From positions 26,894-90,893 of the IMG/VR virus record IMGVR_UViG_3300010347_000503: 64,000 bases of DNA; one strand, given 5' to 3'. The notes under the pieces were generated by a model. That model was not told the origin of the DNA. It was given only the letters and a program-made list of their open reading frames with translations, and ran no database searches. Below, in pieces: positions 3,136 through 27,187 of the stretch (position 1 is its first letter; the number at the start of each line of letters is the position of its first letter). Source of the stretch: a virus (lineage: Duplodnaviria; Caudoviricetes). The translations under genes and the position numbers were made by a program.

Positions 3136-3247
3136 AAGACTCTAACAGCAATTTTGCTGGCTCCTAGCCAGGGTAGTCTAAAGGTTAAGACATTCAACAT
3201 TAAATTGAAAAATAGTGGTTCGAATCCACCCCCTTAAATAAGTCTTG
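3136..3247 (+). repeat. stem-ACAGCAA-stem cassette enclosing a degenerate tRNA
   Basis: AAGACT-CTAACAGCAA...AGTCTTG; inside are D arm GTCT/AGAC, TTCAA-CATTAAA-TTGAA and GTGG-TTCGAAT-CCAC; acceptor only 4 bp. Confidence 0.6.
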
Positions 3248-3256
3248 TAATAATAA

Positions 3257-4223: not shown

Positions 4224-4234
4224 GTTAATATAAT

Positions 4235-4325
4235 AGGGGTGTAGCATAATGGTTAATGCAGCTGTCTCTAAAACAGCCAGGTGCGTCCAAACCACCGGAT
4301 GTGGGTTTAAATCCTACCACCCCTG
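4235..4325 (+). tRNA. amber suppressor tRNA (CTA), long variable arm, G73 (Ser-like body)
   Basis: AGGGGTG/CACCCCT; GCTGT-CTCTAAA-ACAGC, anticodon at 4268-4270; variable arm GGTG/CACC. Confidence 0.85.
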
Positions 4326-4328
4326 TAT

Positions 4329-4440
4329 CGAGAGGTAGTTTAATGGCAGAACGCTGTTTTTGAATTTAGAAATAAATTTTTACAGCAGTTTCTTTTTGCT
4401 TGGGGAGCCGGTAATGCAGGTTTGAATCCTGCCCTTTCGA
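4329..4440 (+). tRNA. tRNA-Pro(GGG) interrupted by about 41 nt in the anticodon stem
   Basis: CGAGAGG/CCTTTCG, A73; removing 4357..4397 restores CTGGC-TTGGGGA-GCCGG. Confidence 0.65.
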
Positions 4441-6392: not shown

Positions 6393-6452
6393 AAGGCACC
6401 TACAGCAAATTTATTTTATACTTCTACTTTTAATAGTAAATTTTGTGCCTTG
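6393..6452 (+). repeat. stem-ACAGCAA-stem cassette with Lys-like anticodon hairpin
   Basis: AAGGCAC-CTACAGCAA...GTGCCTTG; inside is TTCTA-CTTTTAA-TAGTA. Confidence 0.6.
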
Positions 6453-6493
6453 ACAATCGGGGTGTAAGTCAGTTGGTAGACTGCGTGATTTGG

Positions 6494-7161
6494 TAAAAAA
6501 ACTTTAATATAACTCCAAATAAACCATGGATGAAACACTTATTCGTGGCGATGTAAATGAACTCCAATGTATTTTAGACTTCCAAAAAAGAGGGTATTAT
6601 TGCAGTATTCCTTTCAGCGGTTCTTGTAGATACGATGTAGTTGTAGATATAAATAATAAATTATATCGTATTCAATGTAAATCATCTACTTTTCATGAAG
6701 AAGATGGAACATTAAGAATGTATGCTATTAGAACTACAACAAATACTCAAAAAACAATAAGGTATTCCTATTCAAAAGAAGAAGTAGATTTCTTTTATAC
6801 AAGTTGGAATAATTATGGCTTTTTAATTCCTGTGAATGAAGTTTCAACGACTAAATATTTAAGAGTAAAAAAGCCAAAAAATGGAATACAAGAGGGGATG
6901 TCTATTGCTGCTGATTATCTTATTGACAATGTTTTAGAAGCTATTGTTAATAATAAATCAATCAGTAAATATCAAGATAATAGATTTATTTCATGGAAAG
7001 AAAATGAACTTGAAAAAGTTTGGTCTGTTGATGAATTAAAATCTGTTTATCAAGATAGACAAATAAGATATATAAAGGAGTGCATCGCAAACAACAAAAT
7101 GGCTTATCAATATAATTGGAAGTATAAGGAGTTCCCTGAGTTATAAGAGTATTTTTTACTG
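6494..7161 (+). mobile_element. endonuclease-encoding tRNA intervening sequence without a group I core
   Basis: Ends pair (GTAAAAAA/TTTTTTAC, TATAACTC/GAGTTATA); the ORF fills 621 of 668 nt; no GACTA/TAGTC P7 as in the 12 group I introns here. Confidence 0.75.
6526..7146 (+). CDS. PD-(D/E)XK homing-endonuclease-like protein (I-Ssp6803I-like) with C-terminal NUMOD-like tail
   Basis: GDVNELQC...YDVVVD...RIQCKS motif spacing typical of intron-associated PD-(D/E)XK nucleases. Confidence 0.75.
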   Translation: MDETLIRGDVNELQCILDFQKRGYYCSIPFSGSCRYDVVVDINNKLYRIQCKSSTFHEEDGTLRMYAIRTTTNTQKTIRYSYSKEEVDFFYTSWNNYGFLIPVNEVSTTKYLRVKKPKNGIQEGMSIAADYLIDNVLEAIVNNKSISKYQDNRFISWKENELEKVWSVDELKSVYQDRQIRYIKECIANNKMAYQYNWKYKEFPEL

Positions 7162-7390
7162 GATCACGATGCCGTGGGTTCGAGTCCCGCCACCCCGATT
7201 AACCTTTTTGCTATTCAGCACCTTAAAATAAGGTATAGGTTAAAATATAATTTTTTAAGCGAAAATTATATTTCAAGGAAATTGTGAATATTGGTGGAAA
7301 AAATATCTATAAATGATATTTAAAAGAAAGCTCTATGGCTTAGATAGAGATCAATGAAATCACCAATACAAACTTTCTTTTAAATATTAT

Positions 7391-8504: not shown

Positions 8505-8858
8505 GGGGTCGAAACAGTTTCGACGGGGTCTTGAAAATTATTAGTTCGCACGAAATGATATGCGCGTTATGCAATCAAACTTAAAATAAACGCAAAAGTT
8601 ATTTCTTTTAATTCTTATAGACCGGTAGCTATGGCTGCCTAATATAATGAATACCTCAAGTAATTCTATCGCTTCTGGTCAATGCTTGAGTGTTTAAGTA
8701 AAAGAAGCAAGTCGGTTCTTTGTAAACGCAGTTAGGAACAAAGTGGTGGGTCTAGGCAAAAACCTGTTAAAGTGAGAGAACACTTAGAAAACGCTATTGC
8801 GTAAAAAACTAATAATTAGTATGGATTTCGGACGCGGGGGCAGAGCCCGCCGGCTCCA
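8505..8858 (+). ncRNA. ssrA: tmRNA; tag peptide (A)KVISFNSYRPVAMAA* at 8592..8642
   Basis: 5-prime GGGGTCGAAACAGTTTCGAC; 3-prime GGACGCGGG..CCCGCCGGCTCCA; G3:U70 alanyl determinant; AATAAAC-GCA resume context; tag ends in AA. Confidence 0.92.
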
Positions 8859-8862
8859 CTTT

Positions 8863-10374: not shown

Positions 10375-11935
10375 ATGAACACTTTTTTGAATGAAATGAA
10401 GAACGCTTCTAACTATGCAGTAACAGAGAACGGGGCTTTAGCACATAAAACCACACGTTCCGCAGTTTACGATATGTTTGCTCTTGGCGGTGCTTACCGC
10501 AAGAGAAGTGATGAAGACTGTATTCTCTTATTCAAGAACGCTCTTGAAGAGAATGAGACTCTGGCATTGAAGTGTCTGTTTTATTTACGTGATTGCCGCG
10601 GAGGTAAGCTCTTTGCCTAGCCTCCCTATATAGTGATATATAGTAAAAAATTCTGTGAACCCAAGCAAAAGGGGTGTCAGATTTAATCTGGCTAACGGTT
10701 CAGAAGATAGAAATATCGTTATGAGTAAGGGAACCTAAGTCTTATAAAGATATGGTAATACCGTGCCAAGCTACATTTGGTCAATTTTATAAAAATATTT
10801 TCTTATTATTTTAATATCTCTATGTAAGATTAGAACAGGGAGAAAAAATATGGGATATATTTATAAAATTGAAAACTTAATAAATCATAAAATTTATATT
10901 GGGCAAACTACTAAAGAACGACCTACTGATAGATTTAGTCAGCATCGTTATTTAACTAGGCATCCAGAACAAGAAACTTCTATTAGTTATCTTCATAGAG
11001 CGATGAATAAATATGGGGTAGAGAATTTTTCTTTTGAAATTATTGAAGAAATTGAAGATAATCTTCTTAATGAGAGAGAGCAATATTGGATAAAAGAAAA
11101 AGAATCTTTAATGCCAAATGGCTATAATATGACAATAGGTGGAGAAGGAACCATAGGATATTCAAGAATTCAATCTAAAGAAGAAAAAATGAAAAGAAGT
11201 AAATCAGTAAAAAAATTTTATGAGAATAATCCAGAAGCTATTAAAAAATTAAGAGAAAGAACTTTATCTTTATGGCAAGATGAAGAATACAGAAAACGAG
11301 TGACGGAAAGTAATAAAAAATTTTATTCTGAACATCCTGATAAATTTAAAGGAGAAAATAATCCAATGTATGGTAAACATCATACAGAAGAATCATTAGA
11401 AAAAATTCGTAACCATGCCGCAACTCGAAAAAATAAAATTGCCCAATTAGATAAAGACACTTTAGAAATTATTAACATTTATGATGGAATAAAAGATGCT
11501 GAAAAAGCGTTAGGTGTTGGTCATGGATGGATATCTAAAGCGGCAAGACAAGATAAAATTGCTTATGGATACAAATGGAAACTTATGTAGAAGGTGTAAC
11601 GACTAATATGTAGAATAGAGATTAGCACTATTCGAAGCGCAGAACTCTTTCTTAATTTTGGTTAAGAGAGATGAAGAGATAGTCTGCGAAATTATGAAAA
11701 TAATTTTATCGCCGTGCAGGGTGAAAGACGCTTCTTCCGCGTTTGCTATAAGTGGTTAGCTACTAAACACGCAGATATTGCTCGTAAATACATTGAGTGC
11801 ATCCCATATTATGGACGCTATGATGATATTTATTGCTTATTTAATACTCCTCTTGAACAAGATGCTTTAGCTTTTATTAAAAAAGAAATTGATAATGGCT
11901 TAGAAATTTTAGGTGCGTTAGATGAGTTGGGATAA
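10375..11935 (+). CDS. Ro60/TROVE-like (DUF2828-type) protein, N-terminal part; join(10375..10605,11717..11935), 149 aa
   Basis: TENGA..DMFA...YLRDCRGG|QGERRFFR is restored by splicing; ends LGALDELG*. Confidence 0.75.
10606..11716 (+). mobile_element. group I intron with GIY-YIG homing endonuclease
   Basis: Exon ends in U with P1 GGAGGT/GCCTCC; P7 strands ACGACTAA and GAGATAGTC; terminal G; in-frame ligation. Confidence 0.9.
10850..11590 (+). CDS. intron-encoded GIY-YIG endonuclease with NUMOD3/NUMOD1
   Basis: GYIYKIEN..KIYIGQT; ENNPMYGKHHTEES; KIAYGYKW. Confidence 0.9.
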   Translation: MGYIYKIENLINHKIYIGQTTKERPTDRFSQHRYLTRHPEQETSISYLHRAMNKYGVENFSFEIIEEIEDNLLNEREQYWIKEKESLMPNGYNMTIGGEGTIGYSRIQSKEEKMKRSKSVKKFYENNPEAIKKLRERTLSLWQDEEYRKRVTESNKKFYSEHPDKFKGENNPMYGKHHTEESLEKIRNHAATRKNKIAQLDKDTLEIINIYDGIKDAEKALGVGHGWISKAARQDKIAYGYKWKLM

Positions 11936-11954
11936 AAGTAAAAGGAGAATAAGT

Positions 11955-13010
11955 ATGGAAAATAATACAGGATTAATTTTTAAATGGTTAAAGTCAGAAA
12001 ATGCTTCTTCTAAAGAAAAAGCAATAGCTGTAAAAATAAGAAAATATCTTGGAATGACACATAAAGAATATAGAAAAATGCTTTCTTACGGAAGAGAAAA
12101 GACAAATGTTTTAGAAAAATTAATGTCTTCAAATGAGTGGAATAAAATAGACTTTTCTAAAATCCCTTCTAAGGCTGGTTTAATCTATAAGAATGCATTC
12201 GCAAGACGAGATATTATTGCAAAGAAGTATGAAGATTTTGCAAAAGATAAGAATACTACAGTTAATGCTGCGACTTTATATCCTTATGAAGTTGTTGCTA
12301 AAGCAATTGATACTTTTGGCTGGAGTTGTTGGGATAGAGGAACAGCAACTGAAACGGATAGAGCTATGATTGAAAAATATTGGAATAATCTTACAGATTA
12401 TTTTAATGGAAAACAGTCTAATATGCTTTGCGTAGTAGATACTTCAGGTTCTATGCACGGAACTCCTATTAATGTAGCTATTTCTCTTGGTATTTATTGT
12501 GCAGAGCGAGCTGGCGGTCCTTTTAAAGATCACTATATTAGTTTTAGTTCTCGTCCGCAGTTAATTAAGGTTGAAGGTGTTGATTTTGTAGATAAGGTTA
12601 AACGCATCTATCTAACAAATTTGTGTGCGAATACTAATCTTACACGCACTTTCGATATGCTTCTTGAAATTGCAAACCGCCCTGGAGTAAAAGAGGAAGA
12701 TATTCCAGAAACTATCTGTGTAATTAGTGATATGGAAATTGATTGCATGTCAAATTGGGGTTCTTCTAATACACAGACTGAAATGGAAAAAGTAAGAGAG
12801 AAATGGGCTAGATATGGACATAAACTTCCTAAGTTAGTATACTGGAATGTCGATGCTCGTAATAATATTATCTTGGATGGCGGTCCGGATGTTACATTCG
12901 TATCTGGTATGAGTCCAGTCATTTTCGAGAATGTCTTGACAGGTAAAACTGGTTGGGATTTATGTCTTGAGAAATTGCTTTCTAAGAGATATGAAGCTAT
13001 CACTGCTTAA
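11955..13010 (+). CDS. Ro60/TROVE-like protein, C-terminal part with vWA (MIDAS) domain
   Basis: Own AAGGAG RBS; KWLKSENAS; VVDTSGSM; ISDME; YWNV. Confidence 0.8.
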   Translation: MENNTGLIFKWLKSENASSKEKAIAVKIRKYLGMTHKEYRKMLSYGREKTNVLEKLMSSNEWNKIDFSKIPSKAGLIYKNAFARRDIIAKKYEDFAKDKNTTVNAATLYPYEVVAKAIDTFGWSCWDRGTATETDRAMIEKYWNNLTDYFNGKQSNMLCVVDTSGSMHGTPINVAISLGIYCAERAGGPFKDHYISFSSRPQLIKVEGVDFVDKVKRIYLTNLCANTNLTRTFDMLLEIANRPGVKEEDIPETICVISDMEIDCMSNWGSSNTQTEMEKVREKWARYGHKLPKLVYWNVDARNNIILDGGPDVTFVSGMSPVIFENVLTGKTGWDLCLEKLLSKRYEAITA

Positions 13011-15299: not shown

Positions 15300-16559
15300 A
15301 TGATAAATAGAAATACTCAGATGCGCGAACTCGCATACGTCGTTACGGTTGACGCAGTAGAGCCTATTTCTGGTCGTGACCGTGTAGAATGTGCTAGAGT
15401 AGGTGGTTGGACTTGTATGGTTCCAAAGGGTGCATTTAAAGCTGGTGATCCGGGTATCTATTTTGAGATTGACTCTCAGGTTCCTGTAGATAAAGATCCG
15501 TTTAAGTTCTGTGAGAAATATAAGGGACGCATTAAGACTCAGAAATTCAAGACCCCGGATGGTCAGTTCTGGTCTCAAGGTCTCTTAATGGCTGCCGCAG
15601 ATTTTGGTTGGACTACTGATTTTGCTCAGTTTGCTGGAGATTTTGGTTTTATTGTAGATGATAAGGGCGTGCAGCATATTCCTGGAGAAGAGTCTGCATT
15701 TTTAACTACTCAGCTTGGCGTAACTTATTATGAGATAGAGGACCAGAAGCGGAAGGCTGCATCTACTGTTGATAAGTATAAGAAAATGGCTGGACGTCAT
15801 CCACAGCTTTTCAAGAACAATGCTATTGTAAAATGGCTTTATAAGCGGAATTGGGGTAAAAAGCTGCTGTTTGTTTTCTTTGGAAAGAAAAAGGACAAGA
15901 CTGCGTGGCCGCAGTGGGTAGTTAAAACGGACGAGGAACGCGTTCAAAATATTCCTTTTATACTCCAGAGTGATATTCCTTGGTACGCAACTGAGAAGAT
16001 CGATGGAACCAGCACAACTTTCACTATGAAAGGAAGAGGACGCAAAAGAGAGTTTTATATCTGTTCTCGTAATGTATGTTTTGATACTCCTGAGAAGATG
16101 GAAAAGGGTGCTTGGTACGATACCAATGTATATCAAGAGATGGCGATTAAATACAATGTAGAGCAGGTACTTGCAGATATTATGGATTTATTCAAGGATC
16201 TTGAGTTCGTAACTCTTCAGGGTGAGACCTTCGGGGCTGGTATTCAGAAGAGAGATTACGGAATGAAGGATCATGATTTCCGCGCTTTCAATCTGATCTT
16301 CGGTTATAAGAATGGAGAAAAAGAGCGTTTTAATCCGCGGAGAATGACTGACTTCCTTAAACAATTCGGTATTCCTTCTGTGCCGATTGTAGATGAACAT
16401 TTCATTCTTCCGGATACTGTTGAAGAGCTGCTTAATATTGCAACTGACAAATCTGAAATTGATGGCGGAATGCGGGAAGGTTTAGTATTCCGTTCTGCAG
16501 ATGGCACTCAGAGTTTTAAAGCAGTATCTAATGAATTTTTATTGAAATATCATCAGTAA
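15300..16559 (+). CDS. ATP-dependent RNA ligase, Rnl2/DRB0094-type
   Basis: Motif I TEKIDGTS, III LQGETFG, IIIa FRAFNL, IV REGLVF, V FKAVS; N-terminal OB-like module. Confidence 0.88.
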   Translation: MINRNTQMRELAYVVTVDAVEPISGRDRVECARVGGWTCMVPKGAFKAGDPGIYFEIDSQVPVDKDPFKFCEKYKGRIKTQKFKTPDGQFWSQGLLMAAADFGWTTDFAQFAGDFGFIVDDKGVQHIPGEESAFLTTQLGVTYYEIEDQKRKAASTVDKYKKMAGRHPQLFKNNAIVKWLYKRNWGKKLLFVFFGKKKDKTAWPQWVVKTDEERVQNIPFILQSDIPWYATEKIDGTSTTFTMKGRGRKREFYICSRNVCFDTPEKMEKGAWYDTNVYQEMAIKYNVEQVLADIMDLFKDLEFVTLQGETFGAGIQKRDYGMKDHDFRAFNLIFGYKNGEKERFNPRRMTDFLKQFGIPSVPIVDEHFILPDTVEELLNIATDKSEIDGGMREGLVFRSADGTQSFKAVSNEFLLKYHQ

Positions 16560-16689: not shown

Positions 16690-16998
16690 TTGACAAAAAA
16701 TAAAATGATTCAAAGTGAGTTCTATTGTACTAAATGCGGTAAAAAAGGACTTCCAGTTTGGCGCAGGAAAGGTGACGCAAGAGAAGATGGACATTTAAAA
16801 GCATTATATTGTCTATTTTGTAATGATTATACAAACCATGTTGAATGTAAACCTAATACTCCATATTCTTTTGAAGATTTTAAATTAGAATATGAATATA
16901 ATAATTTCACAAAAGATGGTTTAAGAATTTATACTTTAAAACAATTAAAAAATTTAGTTAGAGAAGAGAAAATTGAAAAAGTGAGGGAATTAAAATGA
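16690..16998 (+). CDS. zinc-ribbon protein
   Basis: CTKC and CLFC pairs. Confidence 0.7.
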   Translation: MTKNKMIQSEFYCTKCGKKGLPVWRRKGDAREDGHLKALYCLFCNDYTNHVECKPNTPYSFEDFKLEYEYNNFTKDGLRIYTLKQLKNLVREEKIEKVRELK

Positions 16999-17516
16999 AA
17001 AAATTATTTATTATGGTAGGCTGCCCAGGATGCGGGAAATCTACTTATTTAAAAAATAATGAAAAATTCTTCCATAAATCTCATATTATAATTTCAAGAG
17101 ATGAAATAAGATTTTCTCTTTTAAAAGAAGGAGATTCTTATTTTTCAAAAGAAGATATAGTATATAAAGAATTTATTAAACAAATTAAAGCTGGATTAAA
17201 AATTTATGAAGAAGTATATGTCGATGCAACTCATTTAAATGTGAGTTCCCGCAAAAAATTATTTTATGCTTTAGGTGATGCTATTAAAAATGTAGAACTT
17301 TATGCTATTGTCATAAAAGTACCTCTTGAACAAGCACTTGTGCAAAATCAAAAAAGATTTGGAACAAAAACATATGTGCCAGAAGAAGCTCTGCGGAATA
17401 TGTATAAAAATTTTATGCTTCCTACTTTAAATGAAGGATTTAAAGAAATTTGGTTATATATTTCAGAAGGTATTGATAAACCTTGTCATTTTCAAAATAT
17501 TAGAAAAAGATTTTAA
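16995..17516 (+). CDS. polynucleotide-kinase-like P-loop protein (T4 Pnk kinase domain/AAA_33)
   Basis: GCPGCGKST, SRDEIR, VDATHL. Confidence 0.8.
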   Translation: MKKLFIMVGCPGCGKSTYLKNNEKFFHKSHIIISRDEIRFSLLKEGDSYFSKEDIVYKEFIKQIKAGLKIYEEVYVDATHLNVSSRKKLFYALGDAIKNVELYAIVIKVPLEQALVQNQKRFGTKTYVPEEALRNMYKNFMLPTLNEGFKEIWLYISEGIDKPCHFQNIRKRF

Positions 17517-19286: not shown

Positions 19287-20522
19287 ATGATAAAATTTTA
19301 TGACACATGTAGTTTGTTGGAACTTCAAGAGGAAGTATTCAACGATTCCAAGTTTTATATCTCCAGCATTACTCTTTCTGAACTGGAACAGATAAAAACC
19401 TCTGGAACAAGAGATGAAGAAATTAAGTGGAAAGCGCGGCAGGTGCTTAACTGTCTCCGTCAACATAAACAATCTTATGAAATTATTATTTTTGACAAAG
19501 AAGTTGAAGCATATTTAGATGATTTACAATTAATTTCTAATAATGATAATAAAATAATCGTTTCTGCATATATGCGAAATCAGAATGAGCCTATTACTTT
19601 TGTAACTAATGATTTAGCTTGTGAAGCAATCGCTAATTCAGTTGGTTTAAAAACAGAAATGATTTCTGATAACATTGTAGATGATGATTACACTGGATAT
19701 AAAATAATTAAATTATCTGATGAAGAATTAGCTGATTTTTATATGCATATTCTTCAAGAAAATCAGAATAAATATAATTTATTAACAAATGAATATCTTT
19801 TAATTAAAGATAGTAATAATCATATAGTTGATAAATATAGATGGAATAATAAATATGAAAGTATTGGTTTTATTAAAGCAGAGTCTAAAATGTTTGGTAA
19901 AGTAACACCAAAAGATGATTTACAATTACTTGCATTAGATGCATTAAATAATAATCAAATTACTATGCTTAGAGGCCCCGCGGGAAGTGGTAAATCTCAC
20001 CTGGCTTTTGGATATATGTTTTCTTTATTGGATCAAGGTAAGATTGGAAAAATAATTATTTTCTGCAATACTGTTGCAACAAAAGGATCAGCTAAATTAG
20101 GCTACTACCCTGGTTCCCGCACAGAAAAATTACTTGATAGTCAAATTGGTAATTTTCTTGAAAGCAAATTAAGTAGTCGTATTGAAGTAGAGCGTTTAAT
20201 TGAAGATGGAAGTCTCATTTTACTTCCTATGAGTGACATTCGTGGTTATGACACAACAGGAATGAATGCCGCAATTTATATCACTGAGGCACAAAATCTT
20301 GATATTGAACTAATGAAACTCGCTCTTCAACGTATTGGTGAAGACTCTATATGTATCCTTGATGGTGATGATAAAACTCAGGTTGATATGTCAATGTATG
20401 CGGGAAGTCATAATGGCATGAAGAGAGTGAGTAAAATATTTAGGGGTGCTGATTTCTATGGCGAGATCGCTCTCCAAAAAATCCATAGATCAAAAATTGC
20501 AGAATTGGCTCAACAATTATAA
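19287..20522 (+). CDS. phoH: PIN-PhoH fusion protein
   Basis: N-terminal FYDTCSL/FVTND PIN motifs; GPAGSGKS; IRG..ITEAQN; GDDKTQVD. Confidence 0.85.
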   Translation: MIKFYDTCSLLELQEEVFNDSKFYISSITLSELEQIKTSGTRDEEIKWKARQVLNCLRQHKQSYEIIIFDKEVEAYLDDLQLISNNDNKIIVSAYMRNQNEPITFVTNDLACEAIANSVGLKTEMISDNIVDDDYTGYKIIKLSDEELADFYMHILQENQNKYNLLTNEYLLIKDSNNHIVDKYRWNNKYESIGFIKAESKMFGKVTPKDDLQLLALDALNNNQITMLRGPAGSGKSHLAFGYMFSLLDQGKIGKIIIFCNTVATKGSAKLGYYPGSRTEKLLDSQIGNFLESKLSSRIEVERLIEDGSLILLPMSDIRGYDTTGMNAAIYITEAQNLDIELMKLALQRIGEDSICILDGDDKTQVDMSMYAGSHNGMKRVSKIFRGADFYGEIALQKIHRSKIAELAQQL

Positions 20523-26527: not shown

Positions 26528-27187
26528 ATGAATGAGTTTCAAAAATCTTATATTTTAATTTTTACATCTTTATTAAGTATCATTTTACTTGCTTGCTCTC
26601 TGCGTCTGATGAATGACGTTAACGTACTAAACCAAAGAGTTGATAAACTTATAGAATATCAACAATCAACTCAAGTACCTGATGATTCAACACTTGCTGT
26701 GTCAGGTGAAATAACAATCGCAGGACTAGACGAAATAGTAGTAACAGAAGAAGATAAAGTAGTTGAAGAAGAAATAGAAATTAATGATGATCCCACATTA
26801 GCCAAAAGTAGATATGCAGATACTATTGATGGATTAACTAATTATGAAAAAGATTTAATCTGTCGCATTGCTTTCAGAGAAGCGGGAAACCAAAGTGAAG
26901 AAGGAAAACGCGCAGTTATAGAAGTTATATTAAACAGACTGAATAGTGATGTATGGCCCAATACAGTAGAAGGTGTACTAAGTCAATCCCACCAATTTTC
27001 AACATGGCGCGGAAGAGCTAACGTATCAGCAGAGAATGTAGCAAGCATACAACCAATATTAGATAAAGTAGGTACAGAAGAGCCTATATTATCAGAAGAT
27101 TATATATATTTTAATTCTTTATCTAATCCTAAAATGAATAACAGAGTAAAAATTCAAGATCATTGGTTCGGAACGGGGAATAGTTAA
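26528..27187 (+). CDS. SleB/CwlJ-like cell-wall hydrolase with N-terminal anchor
   Basis: CRIAFREAG...AVIEVILNR..QFS..DHWF. Confidence 0.8.
   Translation: MNEFQKSYILIFTSLLSIILLACSLRLMNDVNVLNQRVDKLIEYQQSTQVPDDSTLAVSGEITIAGLDEIVVTEEDKVVEEEIEINDDPTLAKSRYADTIDGLTNYEKDLICRIAFREAGNQSEEGKRAVIEVILNRLNSDVWPNTVEGVLSQSHQFSTWRGRANVSAENVASIQPILDKVGTEEPILSEDYIYFNSLSNPKMNNRVKIQDHWFGTGNS

Follow-up and report, generated by a model that had tools for sequence, protein, structure and literature searches.

We analysed a window of 64,000 nucleotides (nt) of Caudoviricetes DNA (the whole stretch, positions 26,894 to 90,893 of IMG/VR virus record IMGVR_UViG_3300010347_000503), in which the gene for a proline transfer RNA, tRNA-Pro(UGG), is split at 6458-7198 by an insert that consists almost entirely of a homing endonuclease gene. 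At the DNA level the account that we derive from sequence comparison is well supported, namely that the insert is a target-specific homing cassette without a ribozyme, lodged between tRNA nucleotides 36 and 37. In the predicted transcript the ends of the insert pair with each other and extend the anticodon stem-loop into a rod of double-stranded RNA (dsRNA). We favor the reading, at a probability of roughly 45%, that this rod serves the cassette and that the tRNA is not functionally rejoined. The window was drawn from a 90.9-kb phage contig (G000) with a CheckV completeness of 58%, and it contains a tRNA array, a gene for transfer-messenger RNA (tmRNA) and an RNA-repair gene cluster.

All parts of the split gene lie on the plus strand. 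Exon 1 (6458..6493, tRNA nt 1-36) reads C1, D arm AGTC/GACT, anticodon stem CGTGA and then TTTGG, and exon 2 (7162..7198, nt 37-73) reads G37 A38, TCACG, T arm GTGGG/CCCGC, CACCCCG and A73. The intron-like insert between them is 668 nt long (6494..7161) and comprises a 5' non-coding flank of 32 nt (6494..6525), an open reading frame (ORF) for 206 amino acids (6526..7146) and a 3' non-coding flank of 15 nt (7147..7161), whose last three bases, CTG, pair with the anticodon UGG. In the 5' flank, the rod strand at insert positions +1..+7 is followed by a conserved unpaired A and C at +8,+9 (6501-6502) and then by one strand of a second helix. The ORF occupies 93% of the insert, leaving 47 nt of non-coding sequence. 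These boundaries were read from the sequence, and all of 65 relatives are compatible with the 36/37 position. ARAGORN misses the split gene when run without introns; when introns are allowed it places a tRNA at 6457-7199, with an intron of 666 nt. Since standard tRNA finders miss such split genes, phage tRNA sets are under-counted. When the exons are joined in silico the product is called as tRNA-Pro(tgg) with the 7-nt loop UUUGGGA, zero stem mismatches, C1:G72 and A73. At this locus a shared G makes breaks at 35/36 and 36/37 indistinguishable, and the relatives settle on 36/37. An initial annotation of the window, made from its letters, had described a perfect tRNA-Pro formed from two exons around a nearly all-coding 668-nt insert with flanks of 32 and 15 nt. 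The joined form and the coordinates read as it claimed, which confirms that an endonuclease insert splitting tRNA-Pro is a real observation.

The ORF product belongs to the I-Ssp6803I family of PD-(D/E)XK homing endonucleases, as had been proposed. Residues 7-132 match PF11645 (PDDEXK_5) with 87 bits against a cut-off of 26.1 (E 1.5e-24), and PDB entry 2OST is the best match to the ORF both by sequence (E 9.6e-9) and by fold in Foldseek (E 8.6e-6), the latter with a model of modest quality (predicted local distance difference test, pLDDT, 58.7). The catalytic residues E12, D37, D41 and Q50-x-K52 are invariant across 13 relatives. A C-terminal domain of ~70 amino acids is common to the ORF and to free-standing relatives; it was considered as a dsRNA-binding domain and dropped, as the fold search at this pLDDT returned only 2OST, Hjc and restriction enzymes. 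The target of I-Ssp6803I is pseudo-palindromic DNA that encodes a tRNA anticodon stem-loop (PMC3384342). Its length is given as 23 bp in one review and as 17 bp in another, and the enzyme binds as a tetramer of which two subunits touch DNA.

The split tRNA-Pro is one member of a large family. Protein-guided scans of viral records recovered 14 and then 51 loci with relatives of the endonuclease, and a scan of metagenome contigs recovered 231 relatives, 80 of which, mostly from gut and rumen, were retrieved. In genome_contigs, which holds one genome for each of 185,579 species, there was a single match; the family is therefore phage-specific, and no essential tRNA depends on it. In ~75 distinct phage loci, relatives of the endonuclease split tRNAs of 11 anticodon types, always at 36/37. 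Among 65 loci the interrupted tRNAs are Pro UGG (21 loci), Thr UGU (18), Ala UGC (6), Arg ACG (4), Asn GUU (4), Arg UCU (3), Ile GAU (3), Pro CGG (2), Lys UUU (2), Thr GGU (1) and Val GAC (1). ARAGORN reports a tRNA spanning the ORF in 64 non-redundant loci, and most of the loci that it misses also split tRNAs when inspected by eye. The length of the insert follows that of the ORF, in classes of 458-495, 661-672 and 772-780 nt. In the endonuclease tree the sequences group by target tRNA (26 label changes versus 54.9 when shuffled), as expected of target-specific homing enzymes, and free-standing forms are nested within the tree at least four times. These free-standing relatives (L007, L008, L044, L054, L057 and L058) lie between genes, whereas the copy in tRNA-Pro lies inside the anticodon loop. 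A search for ORF-less derivatives with the 14-mer AAACTTTAATATAA gave only chance matches in AT-rich DNA. We found no description of a family of bare-endonuclease tRNA inserts in the searchable literature, and ribozyme-less endonuclease inserts in phage tRNAs are apparently undescribed.

Two observations concern individual members of this family. In L011 and L013 the endonuclease ORF carries in-frame TAG codons at conserved Gln positions (four in L011), which indicates that these phages read TAG as Gln (code 15); our window encodes an amber-suppressor-type tRNA(CUA) with a long variable arm at 4234-4326. Beside the free-standing endonuclease of L007 lies a tRNA-Pro(UGG) at 1401-1471 that has A33 in place of the near-universal U33, the loop CATGGGA and a G.A-containing T stem. 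The exons of the split relative L006 (identical to L003) have the same A33 and G.A T stem. This tRNA-Pro variant may be a cleavage-resistant target.

The ends of the insert pair with each other across both junctions. The 5' strand of the rod (6484..6500) comprises anticodon stem nt 27-31, loop nt 32-36 and insert +1..+7, and the 3' strand (7152..7168) comprises insert -10..-1, loop nt 37-38 and anticodon stem nt 39-43. Together they form the duplex CGTGATTTGGTAAAAAA / TTTTTTACTGGATCACG, with 17 consecutive pairs from 27:43 to +7:-10, 3 of them G.U. Further in, TATAACTC (6508..6515) pairs with GAGTTATA (7138..7145), which lies at the end of the ORF and overlaps the stop codon TAA (7144-7146). 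Both helices, which the initial annotation had pointed out, recur in the minimum free energy fold of the 741-nt precursor together with intact acceptor, D and T arms (z -9.3 versus 20 shuffles). In this predicted fold the anticodon stem is prolonged by the insert into a rod of 22 bp. Rung 35:-2 is the centre of symmetry of the two junctions, and cuts at them would need a 3-nt stagger with 3' overhangs.

Covariation of this stem in related phages, which had been suggested as a check, was found in 59 distinct rods from relatives. Rungs 34:-1 to +5:-8 are paired in ~90% or more of them, with 3-6 pair types per rung. Across the set there are 90 G.U and 13 A.C combinations, an excess that indicates the plus-strand transcript. 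The two strands of a given rod pair with a score of 0.87, which falls to 0.71 when strands are swapped within one anticodon type and to 0.54 when they are swapped between loci. A 2x2 internal loop at +8,+9, composed of A.A plus a pyrimidine-pyrimidine opposition, is conserved in most rods, and a second class of Pro rods has tandem G.A pairs there. On these comparisons we regard the rod as a real RNA-level feature. Two other explanations of the paired ends were set aside. A target-site duplication does not fit, because the insert ends in CTG and not TGG; these bases are an inverted complement of the anticodon, wobbles included, rather than a repeat left by repair. The terminal 7-bp helix with two unpaired bases looks like an acceptor stem, and the rod was therefore considered as a substrate of ribonuclease (RNase) P and RNase Z; no T-arm-like hairpin adjoins it, and an RNase Z cut would fall 2 nt short.

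One possible fate of such an insert is removal by a cryptic or new self-splicing RNA, whose catalytic activity would come from ORF-overlapping sequence or from the rod and its internal loop. A group I core (P3-P9) takes on the order of 200 nt, which the 47 nt outside the ORF do not accommodate, and in some relatives, L012 among them, the ORF takes up the entire insert. As to the group I U.G rule, the 5' exon ends in G36 here and in G, T or C in relatives; as to the terminal-G rule, the last base of the insert is G, A, T or C and varies with the anticodon (A in L005). Across tRNA types neither junction has any conserved bases. Group II features are likewise absent, in that the insert starts with TAAAAA and not GUGYG, the ORF encodes a nuclease rather than a reverse transcriptase, and Rfam gives no match to domain V or any other family. 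A catalytic RNA hidden within the ORF was set aside on the evidence of codon identity at identical residues, which is uniformly 0.6-0.9 with no local peak of synonymous constraint, the 3' end included; free-standing relatives keep the same protein from end to end. Rfam, searched with gathering and E-value thresholds over the window and 11 relatives, reports no intron, ribozyme or other family in any insert, the outcome that had been expected for 6494..7161. This silence is weak evidence, because Rfam detects not one group I intron in the entire window, the 12 other introns of the initial annotation included, and thus also misses the group I introns reported in dnaE and nrdD of this phage. That blind spot is one point in favor of a cryptic ribozyme, and the conserved internal loop, in both its A.A/pyrimidine and its tandem G.A form, is another. 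We nevertheless consider self-splicing very improbable. It is the lack of room, and not the lack of an Rfam match, that holds, and in this the earlier argument was sound; as judged from its sequence, the insert carries no ribozyme.

The bulge-helix-bulge motif of protein-spliced introns, with two 3-nt bulges and a 4-bp helix, is also absent, as had been noted, since 17 unbroken pairs span both junctions here and the helix is likewise continuous in the 59 rods. The EndA family PF01974 has no match in 5 phage records, 2 of them complete, and no gene for EndA, RtcB, RNase III or Rnl1 was found in the phage records tested.

The cassette appears to be actively mobile. In L078 and L079 the endonuclease DNA is 100% identical over 390 nt, as compared with 86% for the tRNA bodies and 65% for the anticodon arms that surround it, and in L067 and L089 the corresponding values are 94% for the endonuclease DNA and 75% for the tRNA bodies. 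Three pairs of loci share only the split tRNA and its insert (91-96% identical) and have unrelated flanks. Because near-identical cassettes sit in diverged exons and unrelated flanks, site-specific homing by the insert endonuclease is strongly implied. The same near-identity means that the intact exons can be explained by recent invasion and need not reflect selection after insertion, and we therefore dropped exon intactness as proof of tRNA function. The rod, moreover, is found where there is no tRNA. Free-standing L008 (19 perfect bp), L044 and L007 carry an ORF-enclosing helix of similar length without a tRNA (z -3.2 to -5.6), which suggests that the rod may serve the endonuclease message. 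In L119 the endonuclease, the rod and a remnant of the anticodon stem are kept and the remainder of the tRNA is lost, and in L098 the T arm is truncated. The initial annotation had called the insert a homing element that is removed from the RNA by protein enzymes. The first half of that proposal stands, given the family and its mobility, while the second is weakened by that mobility, by the free-standing rods and by the loss of the tRNA in L119.

Our favored reading combines these observations as follows. The cassette would be specialised for the anticodon loop of tRNA-Pro genes. Acting on DNA, its enzyme would cut the empty tRNA-Pro genes of co-infecting phages at their pseudo-palindromic anticodon stem-loop, and repair of the cut would copy the cassette into the empty gene. 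In the RNA, the insert ends and the anticodon stem-loop would form a continuous dsRNA rod of ~17 bp that is centred on nt 35 and closed by the 2x2 loop. We infer that this rod is the cassette's own processing, stability or translation-control signal for the endonuclease message, and it is probably cut by a dsRNA-specific nuclease. The interrupted tRNA-Pro would not be restored to a working tRNA, or would be restored only inefficiently, and the phage would tolerate the loss since its tRNAs are accessory.

The principal alternative is protein-dependent splicing, in which a dimeric structure-specific nuclease cuts the 17-bp rod symmetrically around nt 35, severing one strand behind nt 36 and the other ahead of nt 37 so as to leave 3-nt 3' overhangs, and a phage RNA ligase reseals the loop to give a functional tRNA-Pro. 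The nuclease could be the insert's own PD-(D/E)XK enzyme or another phage or host enzyme, and the end-sealing enzyme could be an Rnl5-type ligase, assisted by kinase and phosphoesterases if the ends need healing. We regard such splicing as a possibility to be taken seriously, though a tentative one. Its more specific form, in which the rod mimics the DNA target of the endonuclease, the PD-(D/E)XK or another dimeric nuclease excises the insert and the Rnl5-type ligase reseals the tRNA, seems to us slightly less likely still. A candidate ligase with an N-terminal oligonucleotide-binding (OB) domain is encoded on the plus strand at 15300..16559 (PF09414 and PF21189; PDB 5COT, E 5e-30), and a candidate P-loop (AAA_33) polynucleotide-kinase-like protein at 16995..17516 on the same strand has homologues in G001, G002 and G004 and none in G009. 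The initial annotation had likewise placed a ligase, a kinase and phosphoesterases downstream; they do lie there, at 7-11 kb, and the ligase is of the Rnl5 or Naegleria NgrRnl type rather than of the Rnl2 type that had been assigned.

Several findings weigh against our reading and for the rejoining of the tRNA. The break is constant at 36/37, and removal of the insert in this register yields a clean tRNA with a canonical 7-nt loop in 65/65 loci. In all 11 tRNA types the last three bases of the insert complement the anticodon. Pairing is tightest at the junctions (rungs 34:-1 to +1:-4 are paired in 56-58 of the 59 rods, as compared with 33-55 farther out), as would be expected if an enzyme must act there. 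Anticodon shifts within endonuclease clades preserve the amino acid (Pro UGG to CGG, Thr UGU to GGU), and identity elements are retained, with C1:G72/A73 in the Pro exons and G3.U70 in every Ala exon. Neither G000 nor G001 nor the complete G002 has a second gene for the anticodon of the split tRNA, and a spare copy lies nearby in just one of the 65 loci. A tally of 26 further viral records, 14 of them near-complete, found a PF09414-like ligase domain in all 14 near-complete records with split tRNAs; 10 of these are above the cut-off and four have sub-threshold matches only, and the association lacks a base rate and is confounded by the frequent presence of RNA-repair genes in tRNA-array phages. 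Conversely, G009, which is 97% complete and has a free-standing endonuclease, lacks both ligase and kinase. The arrays also contain tRNA-in-tRNA inserts that would need rejoining, which implies that half-tRNAs ending in 3'-OH and 5'-P are joined again. Finally, endonuclease genes are rarely known to interrupt functional genes in the absence of splicing.

Other observations are favorable to splicing as well. The G.U excess is specific to the RNA strand, and strands pair better with their own partner than with those of other loci. The joined tRNAs have 0.63 mismatch marks each as compared with 1.11 in 287 uninterrupted tRNAs of the same loci. Ligase and kinase are both present in G000, G001, G002 and G004, and the ligase gene of G001 is situated ~0.5 kb upstream of its split tRNA-Pro. 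The cut that splicing requires would also equal that of I-Ssp6803I on DNA, with 3-nt 3' overhangs centred on the anticodon; in that case the rod would reproduce the layout of the DNA target. There is also a precedent from animals, in which SOS splicing shows that the paired termini of a mobile element can trigger RNA excision and ligation (PMC12779559).

Against these stand the enzymology and the behavior of the cassette. The motifs of the endonuclease are those of an ordinary metal-dependent DNase and include no EndA-type triad. No enzyme is known to cut continuous dsRNA with a 3-nt stagger. Ligases of the Rnl5 type, such as NgrRnl, seal nicks in duplexes and not loops. Rods are present in free-standing copies as well, the tRNA has decayed in L119 and L098, and mobility of the cassette accounts for the intact exons. 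On balance we slightly prefer a rod that serves the cassette.

In a variant that also leaves the tRNA unrestored, the rod would be cut by an enzyme such as the host RNase III, and the halves would stay unjoined or be joined with a 6- or 8-nt loop, giving a non-canonical or regulatory RNA. The rod has sufficient length for an enzyme of the RNase III class, and the junctions are no more than one base away from its centre. Intervening sequences in ribosomal RNA (rRNA) are removed in an RNase III-type manner without ligation. One tRNA-like gene of the window does have an anticodon loop of 8 nt. The geometry is less favorable, as had been recognised earlier, since a 2-nt stagger gives a loop of 6 or 8 nt and a 7-nt loop needs a stagger of 3 nt. 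A tRNA that is nicked beside the anticodon, or that has a 6- or 8-nt loop, decodes poorly, and none of the phage records tested has an RNase III gene. We consider this outcome improbable.

The accepted view is that homing endonuclease genes persist in functional genes only under the cover of a self-splicing intron or an intein, and that protein-based tRNA splicing does not occur in bacteria or their viruses. The inserts described here, a large, phage-specific family, interrupt the anticodon loops of at least 11 tRNA types with a bare endonuclease gene, and their ends pair with the anticodon. Rejoining of these tRNAs would amount to a new RNA splicing pathway without ribozyme, spliceosome or EndA, and it would provide a natural function for phage RNA ligases of unclear role. 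If the tRNAs are not rejoined, a selfish gene would routinely destroy accessory phage tRNAs and exploit the tRNA body and the dsRNA rod for its own expression.

A number of other unusual features lie in the window and in related contigs. In L012 and L014 a complete tRNA-Phe(GAA) sits in the anticodon loop of a second tRNA (239-391), in arrays shared with endonuclease inserts, and further tRNA-in-tRNA or tRNA-shaped inserts lie at L078:1719-1868, L062:1945-2101, L081:2274-2472 and L156:397-542; the outer tRNAs of these loci are Thr/Arg or Glu UUC. RNase P and RNase Z would release the nested tRNA and leave outer halves with ligatable 3'-OH and 5'-P ends. Within the window, a tRNA-like gene at 4329-4440 carries a 41-nt hairpin insert and is called by ARAGORN as Gln(ttg) with a 20-nt intron. 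Deletion of 4357-4397 gives the best-paired product, a tRNA-Pro(GGG), yet many deletions are acceptable, and a second split Pro tRNA at this site is unproven. The gene with the 8-nt anticodon loop is a 138-nt tRNA-like gene at 1601-1740 that reads CTAGA TGGTCTAA TCTAG. It has an insert of ~65 nt in the variable region, starting with GTCACATTGA, and is conserved in the related contig L003 (~3180-3250). Near it Rfam gives a weak match to YrlA (Y RNA-like) at 1556-1653, and a TROVE/Ro60-like protein is encoded at 11922-13010. Directly upstream of the split tRNA-Pro, at 6393-6452, a hairpin GGCAC...GTGCC encloses CTACAGCAA; it has a chance-level Rfam match to Dictyostelium class I RNA, with which it shares a CCUUACAGCAA-like motif. 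Elsewhere the window encodes a GIY-YIG/NUMOD endonuclease ORF (10850-11590), a PIN-PhoH fusion protein beside the RNA-repair genes (19287-20522) and the tmRNA (8505-8861). In related phage contigs a ROOL RNA (L015:2969-3414, 165 bits) and a cow-rumen-3 RNA (L018:534-678, 115 bits) lie beside the tRNA arrays.

The split tRNA-Pro invites comparison with several known systems. Protein-spliced tRNA introns of archaea and eukaryotes, which depend on the bulge-helix-bulge and on EndA or Sen enzymes plus a ligase (PMC4090602), resemble it in their anticodon-loop site and in their pairing with the anticodon. Some archaeal tRNA introns carry homing endonucleases, and removal of the phage insert would likewise need an endonuclease and a ligase. 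Unlike them, the phage insert lies at 36/37 rather than 37/38, its helix is free of bulges, the phage records have no EndA homologue and the host is bacterial, as the tmRNA gene in the window indicates. Lak megaphages have 'enigmatic' tRNA introns (Devoto et al. 2019, PMC6784885) that are also non-ribozyme inserts in the anticodon loop and include a tRNA nested in a tRNA, the type seen in L012 and L014, but they are short and endonuclease-free, and neither a mechanism nor a family was described. SOS splicing of DNA transposons from animal messenger RNAs (Nature 2025, PMC12779559) is similar in that paired termini trigger excision and a ligase reseals the RNA, the cutting enzyme there being unidentified. 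It differs in being animal and nuclear, in using RTCB ligase and in acting on messenger RNA with imprecise junctions, and it has no homology with the phage insert, for which splicing is a proposal. In rRNA intervening sequences excised by RNase III, the insert ends also form a long helix in a structural RNA without a ribozyme; these are not religated and the fragmented rRNA works, whereas a tRNA cut in its anticodon loop would not.

The closest parallels lie among homing endonucleases. Free-standing phage endonucleases and intronless homing, such as T4 SegB in a tRNA cluster (PMC3984707), share with the insert the absence of a self-splicing vehicle and movement between tRNA regions, and free-standing relatives of our endonuclease adjoin an intact tRNA-Pro in L007 (30 nt downstream) and in L008. 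Free-standing genes sit between other genes, however, whereas the insert interrupts the anticodon loop and its ends pair with the anticodon. The tRNA-fMet gene of Synechocystis PCC 6803 contains a 655-nt group I intron whose 150-amino-acid ORF encodes I-Ssp6803I itself (PMC1995217; PDB 2OST), and here the endonuclease family, the kind of anticodon stem-loop target and the insertion in the anticodon loop are all the same. The Synechocystis intron has ~200 nt of ribozyme outside its ORF and self-splices, in contrast to the phage insert with its 47 non-coding nt and neither a core nor the U.G and omega-G rules. The one is a cyanobacterial intron; the other belongs to a phage family that has spread over 11 anticodon types.

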